Assembly: GCA_951406725.2 (NCBI GenBank)
Contig: OX597824.1
Coordinates: forward strand, 85,126,001 to 85,190,000
DNA length: 64,000 nucleotides
Direction: 5' to 3'
Source of the DNA: Octopus vulgaris
Taxonomy: Eukaryota
Part shown: positions 3,613 through 56,888 of the stretch, piece by piece
Layout: every line of letters begins with the position of its first letter
Position numbering within the stretch: position 1 is the stretch's first letter
Program-made: the position numbers and the translations under genes
The notes under the pieces: generated by a model
What the model saw: the letters and a program-made list of their open reading frames with translations, nothing else
What the model was told of the DNA's origin: nothing
Database searches by the model: none

Positions 3613-5559
3613 TATATATATATATATGCATATATTAAGGAAAAGCTCTCGGTATAATGCATAAATGCTGCAGAGAAAAAAGACAATTTACGCGCACGTG
3701 TTTCGATTTGGTTTCATTAACATTGCATTGTCCTTTACTATTAAAATGAATAAATTAAACTCCATCAATGAATGCAGAGATGGTGGTGGTGGTGGTGGTG
3801 GGGGCGTGATACATCTGATTAAGATCAACTAATTGCCCCCAATCAAATCCTTTGACCTTGTGAATATGTTACTATATTCGAAAATTTTGATTAGTAAAAT
3901 AGAGAGCTTCGGGTGGCGCAATCAGTAGAGTGCCGGACAAAATACCCGTTAATATGATTTAGGTTATAAATTTACTGCTTGTCAGAAATTATCTTAGTTT
4001 TTTTTTGTCCTTTCTGGGGTGGTTAAAATAAACAATAATATACTGGAATTAATTAAATTGATTCTACTTCCCCCACCCAAATCTACTGATACCCTTATTA
4101 ATTAAAGTTTTGAGATTTAAGGCCCAAGAAACCGAAAGGCATCTGGCGCTCTCGCTAACCACTGCTGGGATGAATTTTCGTCTCTTTCTGATATTTATCC
4201 TTTTTTTTAACACAACCTGTCCATAATAGTTGTTATCTCACGACAAATACTGCAGTAACTGATCTCCTGACAGTGTATTTACATTAAGTATGATACATAG
4301 TTAGCTAACAAATCTCAGATCTTAAGGTTTAGATTAGAGGCGACGAACCATTTTAGTACTAAGGATAAACTGCAAGTGAGTTAGGACATGTGCAGGCATA
4401 TCTGTGCTGAGGCAAATATAATAAAATAATGAATCTTTAACCTTATAAGTTCTGTAGTATGCAACTTATAGATTGTTTTGGTCTTAAGACTTAAACTGCT
4501 CCAGTTTTTGATATGGGATTTTAGAAACTTCACAGATGGGCGGTTTCGATTATGAATGCGGGCGAAAAATTCTGGCTTTGACAAAGGCTTCCTCCAGAAT
4601 GCAATGTGATGATAATTTTCTGTAACTCCACTGTATAGGTCTCAGTATCAACATGTCATTCTCTTGGGCGGAGATTTTGTTGTCTTTAGCAGTTTTTTTT
4701 TTATTTATGAAAGTTGATATAACATTCTCTCGTATTTTTCTAAGGTCTCTCGTCAATTCTCTTGCTAAATTCTGCTTCTTCAAGGTCGATTTTGTCCTTG
4801 ATACCTCCAGGGTCAATAAAATATATACCATTACTAGTACCAGTCAAATACTAGTGTTGGTTAAAGTAACTACACACCGTCTCCTAATATTGGCCATAAG
4901 CCAATTTATTAAAAAAATTTTACGATAAGCAATCATTTTTTTGCAGTGACTAAAACCAAACACGATGATGAATCAACTTACAAGTAAATGTAACTATCGT
5001 TTCAGTAAAGAAAGAAAAACTAAAATATATATATATATATAGATACAGTAGTATAATTCACTCAGAGATTGAACCAGATATAGCATGATTCATAGGATGA
5101 ATTTTTCATAAAATAAAAAAAAACAAAAACAAAAAAAGAAACTCTAAATAACTCCCAGTCATATGATATGGAAGGAGAGAGAATATAGTAAAAGTGTGCT
5201 GGCGTTCGTTAAAAACTTCATCTGCGTCGATCGAAGGTGCATTTTTCATGAGGAAAAGCGTTGGCTGAGCGTCCATTTTGAATCATTAGCGAAGTGACGT
5301 CAAAGATGGCAGCAGTGAGCAGAGGATTTATGGTTTCGTTCATTTCCGATGCTTCACCTGAGCAAGGAACGGTTCTACCGTTTCTCAAATTACAAATATG
5401 GTTTTCATTTTCACTTAAAATTCATTTGAATGGAGATAATGATGAGCTCAGTAATATCGCTAAAGTAGTTGTGCGGACCGGTTTCCGATCCGCTCCGGAC
5501 TGTACACTGAAACGCATTACTGTAACAAAATACCAGTTCGCCCTGGCGTCTATACTTAC

Positions 5560-40135
<34,576 letters not shown>

Positions 40136-43217: not shown

Positions 43218-43736
43218 ATAGATAAATAGATAGATAGATACACATATACAAACATAAGGAAACATGTTGGTTGGTTGGAATATTTCTTCGTGCCAACAGA
43301 TTGGCGTGATTTACAATTTATCACACTCATTAATCGGTGACAATGGGTGTTTCTCGTCAATTAAACGAAATCTGATTTTTACGTTTAGGGGGCAAATAAT
43401 CTCGTTTCCTAACACAGAACTATTAACAGACACTTTACGTTTGAAATGCACGTGAGCATGCACACTTGTCAGTTTCGAACGAAAGCAGAGGTAATGCACG
43501 AACGCACGCAGGCACGCGAGCGCACACAAACACAAACACACAATCACAAGACATTGGTTGCCCAGAATAAAATTATGAAAGACTGTTTCTAAATAATCTC
43601 ACAACCTTTAAGACTTGATAGTTGTTCAACAACACAAGCGTAAAAGTACAGTTCTATATTTAAGAGATGAGGAATTTCGTACATTATTTACATTATTTAC
43701 ATTTGACGGATATTTGTCCTCATCTTGTTTGTTGTT

Positions 43737-43782
43737 AACACAACATTTCGGCTGATATACCCTCCAGCCTTCTTCAGGTGTC
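43737..43782 (-). ncRNA. Minimal hammerhead ribozyme (CUGAAGA core)
   Basis: GACAC CTGAAGA A GGCTG-GAGGGTATAT-CAGCC GAAA T GTT GTGTT. Confidence 0.7.
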
Positions 43783-43829
43783 TTGGGAAAATTTCGAACC
43801 TGGGATCTCATTCCTAAGGTATTTTTCGA

Positions 43830-43909
<80 letters not shown>

Positions 43910-44050
43910 TCACTGCTTTTAATTGAACTCGGAATATAGGTGTTAGCCCGCGATCTTAACCACTATGCCATAGGCCCACGGGCATATAGCATAGTCGTTC
44001 AGATCGTGTGCTACTAACCCCATGATTCCGAGTTCAATTAAAAGCAGTGA

Positions 44051-44109
<59 letters not shown>

Positions 44110-44168
44110 TTAATAATAATATCGAAAAATACCTTAGGAATGAGATCCCAGGTTCGAAATTTCCCAAA

Positions 44169-44214
44169 GACACTTGATGAAGGCCGGAAGGTATATCAGT
44201 CGAAACGTTGTGTT
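44169..44214 (+). ncRNA. Minimal hammerhead ribozyme (degenerate mirror copy)
   Basis: GACAC TTGATGA A GGCCG-GAAGGTATAT-CAGTC GAAA C GTT GTGTT. Confidence 0.55.
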
Positions 44215-44311
44215 AACAACAAACAAGATGAGGACAAATATCCGTCAAGTGTAAAAGCAGTGTCCCATTTTCACATATTCAAATATATGTATGCATCTAT
44301 ATGCATATATA

Positions 44312-54732: not shown

Positions 54733-54924
54733 ATATTCTGTTGTGTCTGGGGAGAGTCATTCTCTTTTAGTGCCTTATTATTTAACACACTCACTGGTAA
54801 AATTTCCACTTATTTCTTATTTTTTATTTTCTAAAAATAAGAAATAAGTGGAAATTTTACCGGTGAGTGTGTTAAATAATAAGGCACTAAAAGAGAATGA
54901 CTCTCCCCAGACACAACAGAATAT
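54733..54924. repeat. Near-perfect inverted repeat (~90-bp arms) of a dispersed element
   Basis: atattctgttgtgtctggggagagtc..cttattt versus aaataagaaataag..gacacaacagaatat; single partial copy at 26190..26276. Confidence 0.85.
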
Positions 54925-56474: not shown

Positions 56475-56888
56475 TATTTCTTTACTACCCACAAGGAGCT
56501 AAACACAGAAGGGACACACAAGGACAGACAAACGGTTTAAGTCGATTACGTCGACCCCAGTGCGTAACTGGTACTTATTTAATCGACCCCGAAAGGATGA
56601 AAGGCAAAGTCGATCTCGACGGAATTTGAACTCAGAACGTAGCAGCAGACAAAATACCTATTTCTTTACTACCCACAAGGGGCTAAACACAGAGGGGACA
56701 AACAAGGAAAGACAAACGGATTAAGTCGATTATATCGACCCCAGTGCGTAACTGGTACTTATTTAATCGACCCCGAAATGATGAAAGGCAAAGTCGACCT
56801 CGGCGGAATTTGAACTCAGAACGTGGCAGCAGTCGAAATACCGCTAAGCATTTCGCCCAGCGTGCTAACGATTCTGCCAGCTCGCCGC
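56475..56888 (-). mobile_element. SINE family A head-to-tail dimer with 17-bp TSD
   Basis: Flanked by agaagcagccattacct. Confidence 0.88.

Follow-up and report, generated by a model that had tools for sequence, protein, structure and literature searches.

Which enzyme inserted a repeat that joins a tRNA-like sequence to a hammerhead ribozyme in two inverted arms, and from what RNA it was copied, is the question raised by a locus of Octopus vulgaris. The repeat is positioned at 43648–~44245 of the window, which is the whole stretch of DNA analysed here, 64,000 nucleotides of contig OX597824.1 (positions 85,126,001–85,190,000). The initial annotation described it as a SINE-like element with a Pol III head, processed by its hammerhead and moved by the machinery of a Penelope-like element (PLE).

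Organization of the fold-back and its position in the host gene

The repeat is formed of two back-to-back inverted arms, 43648–43977 on the minus strand and 43980–~44245 on the plus strand, with a 2-nt centre between them. The bodies of the arms are 93.6% identical across 156 nt, which confirms the annotated fold-back with two outward-reading arms. From the centre outward, each arm contains a tRNA-like segment, an (AAT)n run, and a body with a hammerhead, as delimited from the sequence, the comparison of the arms, and the family majority. In the left arm, the tRNA-like segment is located at 43903–43977, the (AAT)n run at 43831–43902, and the 183-nt body, with a candidate ATG at 43811–43809, at 43648–43830, all on the minus strand. 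The annotated A box of this arm, TGGCATAGTGG, is present and intact at 43960–43970, and the B box is at 43919–43929. The right arm, on the plus strand, has a tRNA-like segment at 43980–44056, with a degenerate A box at 43987–43997 and a B box at 44031–44041, followed by the (AAT)n run at 44057–44120 and the body at 44121–44245, with a candidate ATG at 44140. The B box is damaged in both arms (AGTTCAATTAA, compared to AGTTCGATTCC in the family). The centre is a palindrome, GCCC-AC-GGGC, at 43974–43983; its AC belongs to the native upstream region of the parent PLE, and the palindrome may correspond to the 5′ end of a short RNA.

The fold-back is a single insertion, bounded by a 13-bp target-site duplication (TSD) with copies at 43635–43647 and 44246–44258 (plus strand) that are identical at 11/13 positions. 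Since the second copy occupies 44246–44258, the right end of the element is at ~44245. This copy in part resembles the element sequence, and the microhomology blurs the end up to 44255, where the annotation had placed it. The terminal ~35–55 nt, called the tail, are present only in the left arm (43648–43679, minus strand; the inner boundary is approximate). An AT-rich tail had been assigned to each arm. However, the right arm ends without it, and the tail of the left arm is coding sequence of the parent ORF, with which it is continuous in full-length copies.

The variant AATTAAAAGC is common to both arms and the variant GATTACAAGC is present in the copy at 11730, as had been noted, and the sharing between the arms had been taken as evidence of one template. 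Four non-CpG changes from the family majority occur in both arms, and three of them are inside a tract of 74 sites without a single difference between the arms, compared to 19 differences in ~130 sites elsewhere (P about 1e-5). The change at head position 25 is shared outside the identical tract, and the arms differ at position N7 of the hammerhead. From these differences, conversion between the arms after insertion looks like an explanation of the identical tract that is as good as a diverged template. Sharing of the AATTAAAAGC type is therefore weak proof of one template, although the origin of the arms in a single event is supported by variant sharing and by the 117 insertions described below.

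A second, shortened two-armed copy is present at 11612–11845. As seen from the sequence and the comparison of its arms, a minus-strand AAY run and the 3′ part of the tRNA segment (11729–11772) are joined to a plus-strand body end with the tail (11777–11845). Guanylate cyclase exons are located on the minus strand of the window at 5464–30220, among them those of the HNOBA (29990–30220) and the catalytic domain (26001–26240), and more exon-like pieces of the same gene were found near 27700–27960, 12010–12130, and 5470–5620. An HNOB exon is positioned on the minus strand of the same contig at 85234645–85235130, 44 kb past the window end. The fold-back lies between the HNOB exon and the HNOBA and guanylate cyclase exons, all on the minus strand, and therefore most probably sits in an intron of a soluble guanylate cyclase gene, in line with the initial annotation. 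By sequence, both copies in the window appear to be intronic in this gene. Another abundant dispersed repeat is present at 12324–12683, 24787–25146, and 56537–56888, in both orientations and with copies that are 86–89% alike. Short perfect or near-perfect hairpins at 23091–23202 and 54781–54876 are microsatellite-derived, with a ~96-nt inverted repeat, and give spurious miRNA matches.

The parent Penelope-like element and its insertions

Among 30 loci selected by the head, 29 run on into the body, and ten have a common sequence upstream of the tRNA-like segment that translates, as read by eye, as a GIY-YIG-type C-terminus. In 28/30 loci chosen by the endonuclease sequence, the tRNA-like segment begins 29 nt past the stop codon of an RT–GIY-YIG ORF. 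The RT upstream of the unit matches RVT_1 of Pfam with an E-value of 4e-6, under the curated cut-off, and its region matches that of a co-resident PLE (tblastn 1.6e-34). Protein relatives of the parent element have identities of 55–73%. The 55-aa endonuclease piece alone has no Pfam match, and GIY-YIG was assigned by motif and relatives; the PDB contains no close structure. At locus L394, the tail runs in frame into a PLE N-terminal domain that is 40% identical over 208 aa to the full-length protein P0023, and the motif PKRCVNN, encoded by the hammerhead stretch, is common to this frame and P0023. The unit, consisting of the tRNA-like segment, (AAY)n, hammerhead, and tail, lies after the stop codon of the RT–GIY-YIG ORF, and tandem copies have it in frame ahead of the ORF as well, so that the hammerhead and tail encode the ORF start. 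Because it follows the ORF stop and its tail continues into the PLE N-terminus, the repeat unit is the pLTR of a PLE.

The PLE machinery proposed initially thus has an autonomous-type partner that shares not only the tail and hammerhead but the whole unit. The 3′ part of the unit consists of coding sequence of the PLE and has the insertion anatomy of a PLE instead of a LINE-like end, and the tRNA-like segment is part of the PLE itself, which does not support an independent SINE that borrowed a PLE end. Judged by the linked ORF, with its PLE-type RT and C-terminal GIY-YIG, the unit belongs among the pLTRs of EN+ PLEs. There is no Cys (zinc-finger-like) linker between RT and EN in the parent translations, unlike in a co-resident family of 781 aa, which suggests that the parent belongs to the Penelope/Poseidon clade. 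The column-majority of the coding region does not have a single open frame, the longest being 463 aa. The tail hairpin, a plain Watson–Crick stem in coding sequence, was rejected as a SECIS element. The young 781-aa GIY-YIG family (L061–L073) was rejected as the partner, since it has no DNA similarity to the unit and different ends. Its copies (for example, C16:20835500–20841000) have an intact RT–GIY-YIG frame with a Neptune-like Cys linker, a ~1-kb 3′ region with repeated TGACGTC- and CCAAT-like words, an optional ~37-nt tail, the same inverted arm, and a hammerhead-like motif with the core UUGAUAA instead of CUGANGA.

The left-body sequence gave 2,024 candidates in a DNA search of the 2.8-Gb genome. 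Exact 22-mers occur 537 times for the ORF end, 4,931 times for the tRNA segment, 9,970 times just past the hammerhead, and 5,740 times for the tail; reversed 22-mer controls do not occur at all, so the unit counts are not due to chance. The counts drop from 4,931 to 537 across ~85 nt between the tRNA segment and the ORF end, and short copies outnumber ORF-linked ones ~9 to 1. Non-CpG divergence from the family majority is ~4–5% (3.8–4.7% in short and 4.4–5.1% in ORF-linked copies).

The anatomy of the insertions was determined from 117 non-redundant, pattern-selected insertions of contig C1. As anticipated in the initial annotation, copies are often inverted dimers: 74 are divergent (head-to-head) pairs, 41 have a single orientation, and two are of other types. 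The body is present at both outer ends of 55/74 pairs, of which 47 have exactly one tail, three have none, one has two, and four have other ends; 19/74 pairs are unscorable for the tail. Contrary to the expected absence of TSDs, the flanks share at least 8 nt in 35/47 one-tailed pairs, compared to 2.4% of shuffled pairs, with a TSD mode of 12 bp. The 3′ ends are bimodal, at body positions ~136–155 and 180–183. A 9-nt duplication polymorphism at body positions 143–154, in the inner start-site cluster, keeps the reading frame. Diagnostic sites agree between arms in 138/161 comparisons, compared to 68% for random pairs, and private non-CpG variants are shared by arm pairs 3.5 times more often than by random pairs (25/6,822 sites compared to 0.10%). 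The tail-less arm extends further 5′ in 20/47 pairs and the tailed arm in 14/47, so neither arm was simply copied from the other. The insertions thus agree with those of Pen2a_Av and with the two internal start sites of PAc, and the fold-back almost certainly represents standard PLE anatomy, a pattern that has already been described.

Head-to-tail tandems of the retrozyme type are not characteristic of these loci, since 115/117 insertions are divergent or of a single orientation and none form arrays. Rare tandem derivatives (L414, L416, L420, L433, L434, L436, L410, and L415), in which a pLTR and about 230–265 nt of ORF are followed directly by another pLTR, are possibly a retrozyme-like subfamily. 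L416 and L433 have one common junction, with the second unit starting exactly at position −6, and L414 and L420 are joined at the hammerhead cut region.

The tRNA-like head, the hammerhead, and the origin of short copies

In the tRNA-like segment of the family majority, the A box is identical to the consensus given in the available text of PMC8969392 and the B box matches it at 10/11 positions, with a spacer of 33 nt between them. ARAGORN with relaxed settings called 22/102 heads as tRNA and 0/102 shuffled ones, which, together with the boxes, supports the annotated tRNA derivation; with default settings, it called 0/102 heads and no tRNA within the 64-kb window. A head identical to the majority folds no better than shuffles (z +0.78), indicating that the A and B boxes were kept while the cloverleaf was lost. 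There was no clear source among ten tRNA isotypes sampled (best match 49/73), and Rfam scans recognized neither a tRNA nor a hammerhead, the matches being microsatellite noise or due to chance. No tRNA-like segment was found up to 600 nt downstream of 54 distant metagenome PLE stretches, many of which are incomplete. A "tRNA-Ser(ACT)" in L086 was rejected as a decayed tRNA-Cys copy; at this locus (L086:138–2854), tRNA-Cys genes and decayed copies are arrayed in tandem.

The 5′ ends of the copies cluster at the start of the tRNA-like segment. Copies were selected by a motif in the 3′ half of the segment, and of the first 100 exact matches listed, 68 have ends at −7 to +7, 21 inside the head, two at about −14, which are probably inverted-arm artefacts, and nine clearly further upstream. 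Only about 2.6 ends at −7 to +7 are expected from the ORF truncation rate of 40 ORF-linked copies. The pile-up points to short transcripts, putatively made by Pol III, with a distance of 13–14 nt from the inferred start to the A box.

In the family majority, the minimal hammerhead core is complete, stems I and II are 5 bp each, an extra base follows A9, and stem III is palindromic. The initial annotation's hammerhead is thus conserved in the consensus, and agrees with the description of minimal type I PLE hammerheads (PMC4209133): helix I of 4–5 bp, an extra base between positions 9 and 10.1, G10.1–C11.1, and palindromic 15.2–16.2. In the left arm (43737–43782, minus strand; predicted cut after GUU at 43742/43741), the core is intact and a C to T change in the stem III palindrome has removed a CpG. 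Stems I and II are both formed in its minimum-energy fold, which, with a z of −0.98, is nonetheless no more stable than shuffles. The right-arm hammerhead (44169–44214, plus strand) has C3 changed to U and three stem II or loop changes relative to the family majority; comparison and folding predict that it is probably inactive. The sequence written in the annotation therefore holds for the left arm and differs in the right, and neither arm keeps the exact family ribozyme. Position N7, at which the hammerhead tolerates change, is the one non-CpG polymorphic core position of the family (171 T and 43 A of 217). This confinement of the variation may hint at selection on the hammerhead in source copies. 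GUU is a weak cleavage triplet. Most copies span the predicted cut site, and body-internal 5′ ends at positions 87–94 are in weak excess (16/118 compared to 9.1 expected, P 0.019, in a post hoc comparison of mixed samples with a palindrome nearby). By this measure, hammerhead cleavage is apparently unneeded for most copies, which does not bear out the ribozyme-processed element of the initial annotation.

The hairpin consists of two Penelope/Poseidon-type pLTR copies inserted together head to head, and they were probably copied from a short RNA for which Pol III is predicted to start at the built-in tRNA-type promoter. Transcription would begin about 6 nt upstream of the tRNA-like segment. The PLE protein would nick both target strands ~12 bp apart, and two cDNAs would be primed at two internal sites on uncleaved RNA, one with and one without the tail. 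Because these sites are internal, a ragged Pol III 3′ end would be harmless. The two cDNA ends would then anneal via the palindromic RNA 5′ end and create the fold-back. Short RNAs would be pasted by the parent's own enzyme far more often than the whole element, as a SINE-like by-product inside the parent. The sources are probably mostly PLE copies and not a separate SINE lineage, because short copies share variants with ORF-linked ones. Counting against a Pol III start are the damaged B box in both arms at 43648–~44245, the stable junction palindrome, which could trigger the fold-back by itself, and a TATAA, which is placed so as to fit Pol II as well.

The palindrome underlies a rather improbable alternative, in which all copies stem from long PLE transcripts, cDNA synthesis stops or snaps back at GCCC-AC-GGGC, and the tRNA segment is a passive relic without any short RNA. 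Within the 1.4 kb at the 3′ end, the junction ranks second in stability among 16-nt hairpins, with only one other 16-nt window equally stable, self-priming of PLEs at junction palindromes has been proposed in the available text of PMC3846280, and the two classes of copies, short and ORF-linked, have variants in common and are similarly divergent. However, in ORF-linked insertions from 100 ORF-selected loci, 16/18 partner arms that cross the tRNA-like segment continue upstream, compared to 14% (11/79) in main-arm sampling, which speaks against stalling on a long RNA, although the test is biased toward insertions with the ORF on both arms. Many ends at −7 to +7 occur without a fold-back, also in single-orientation copies, and the boxes and their spacing were kept even though the stems were lost. 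Cleavage of the long PLE RNA by RNase P at the tRNA 5′ end, which would free a short template, agrees with the clustering of 5′ ends at the tRNA start but is very improbable, since the native bases −4 to −1 are kept at 25/35 fold-back centres, as they are at 63/79 native junctions, and the segment does not fold as a cloverleaf.

The perfectly matching A box, the nearly perfect B box, their spacing of 33 nt, and the short distance from the start to the A box also make it improbable, more so than the stall, that the tRNA boxes are incidental and that the short RNA is made by Pol II from a TATA or internal pLTR promoter, as in the D. virilis Penelope, which has a LINE-like internal promoter according to the available text of PMC2377424. 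Such transcription would account for short copies without private variants, and the TATAA overlaps the stop codon 24–28 nt upstream of the inferred start. However, TATA-like words are common in the AT-rich host genome, and the element majority is free of TTTT. The self-propagating SINE lineage of the initial annotation, with short copies as sources and PLE enzymes acting in trans, has a still lower probability. It would fit the excess of short copies, the private variants shared by arm pairs, and the change at head 25 beyond the identical tract. However, arm-to-arm conversion can yield shared variants, the tRNA is integral to the PLE, and, in a small sample, short and ORF-linked copies have the same haplotypes, with no variant diagnostic of short copies.

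The Pol III reading can be extended to the whole autonomous element, which we regard as unlikely. Transcription from the tRNA promoter of the upstream pLTR would then cross a 2.5-kb ORF free of terminators, and the RNA would lack a cap and be translated with the (AAY)n stretch as its leader. The promoter of the downstream pLTR would shed the SINE. The sense strand of the 2.5-kb majority has zero TTTT, and real copies have 51 in 131 kb (0.39 per kb), compared to nine in 2.3 kb (3.8 per kb) in the co-resident 781-aa PLE of the same T content and 1.0–4.6 per kb in five other PLE pieces. The probability of this absence depends on the null: 0.02 for shuffling, 0.13 and 0.33 for Markov models, and 0.04 and 0.20 for synonymous recoding of 1.4 kb. 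TTTT is also absent from 8/54 distant PLE stretches, one of them 2.1 kb long without a tRNA nearby. Because the column-majority lacks a single open frame, its T-run counts may carry small errors, but the real copies agree. The depletion is only suggestive of Pol III transcription of the whole element. If true, Pol III would transcribe a retrotransposon that codes for protein, and SINEs could be born directly from within a Penelope element.

Relation to known elements and significance

SINEs are by definition Pol III parasites of LINEs. The short octopus copies resemble them in the tRNA-derived head with A and B boxes near a defined 5′ end and in their TSDs. Canonical tRNA SINEs, as covered by the available text of PMC8969392, have a length of 80–500 nt, boxes 10–15 nt from the 5′ end, and TSDs; the octopus copies differ in being moved by a PLE and not a LINE, in having PLE coding sequence in place of a LINE-like, poly(A), or simple-repeat 3′ end, and in having their head inside the autonomous partner. 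The parent shares with the PLEs Pen2a_Av of Adineta vaga, an EN+ PLE with pLTR insertions (PMC3846280), and PAc of Anolis, for which two internal start sites were shown (PMC11167929), an ORF of RT with C-terminal GIY-YIG, the ORF start and hammerhead in the pLTR, an inverted 5′-truncated arm, a one-sided tail of 30–40 nt, a TSD of ~9–14 bp, and uncleaved RNA as the main substrate, as far as the available texts of these papers and of a general account of PLE anatomy (PMC8557442) describe them. Unlike in these PLEs, the octopus pLTR opens with a tRNA-derived segment containing A and B boxes, and this is the exact starting point of most copies. The word tRNA is absent from PMC3846280 and PMC4209133.

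Sm-alpha and Sj-alpha of Schistosoma similarly combine a tRNA-derived Pol III promoter with a type I hammerhead in tens of thousands of copies (PMC2770079, PMC6765202, and PMC8490949). According to the available parts of these reports, however, they are tandem, are cut by an active canonical hammerhead into units that carry the promoter at their 3′ ends, and are not assigned a named partner, whereas the octopus family has a minimal hammerhead, dispersed head-to-head pairs starting at the tRNA, and a partner PLE with which it has the whole unit in common. Non-LTR retrozymes and non-autonomous PLEs are likewise short pLTR-derived hammerhead elements ascribed to PLE enzymes (PMC7229834; bioRxiv 10.64898/2026.07.22.740005; MRC1 in PMC8557442; PMC6685494). 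They are tandem, are thought to pass through circles, and have no Pol III promoter mentioned in the available texts, whereas the octopus family has mostly inverted pairs with a fixed 5′ end. Neither a tRNA-type promoter in a pLTR nor a PLE-driven SINE was described in the full-text literature searched, which included few subscription papers; Repbase and Dfam were outside the search, so the family may have an entry there.

The fold-back shape, the combination of tRNA promoter and hammerhead in Sm-alpha, and non-autonomous PLEs were thus known already, and what is new is a tRNA-type promoter inside a pLTR with a SINE-like short class. tRNA SINEs of octopus were reportedly described by Ohshima and Okada in 1994. 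The SINE-like class is seated in, and pasted by, a PLE, a partner established by sequence continuity and not by guesswork. It suggests a possible route of origin for hammerhead-bearing SINE-like repeats such as Sm-alpha. With its thousands of natural insertions, the family also allows the two-site initiation model of PLE transposition to be tested, with one tail per pair, 12-bp TSDs, and both arms RNA-templated. In the octopus, thousands of such intronic hairpins would supply double-stranded RNA.
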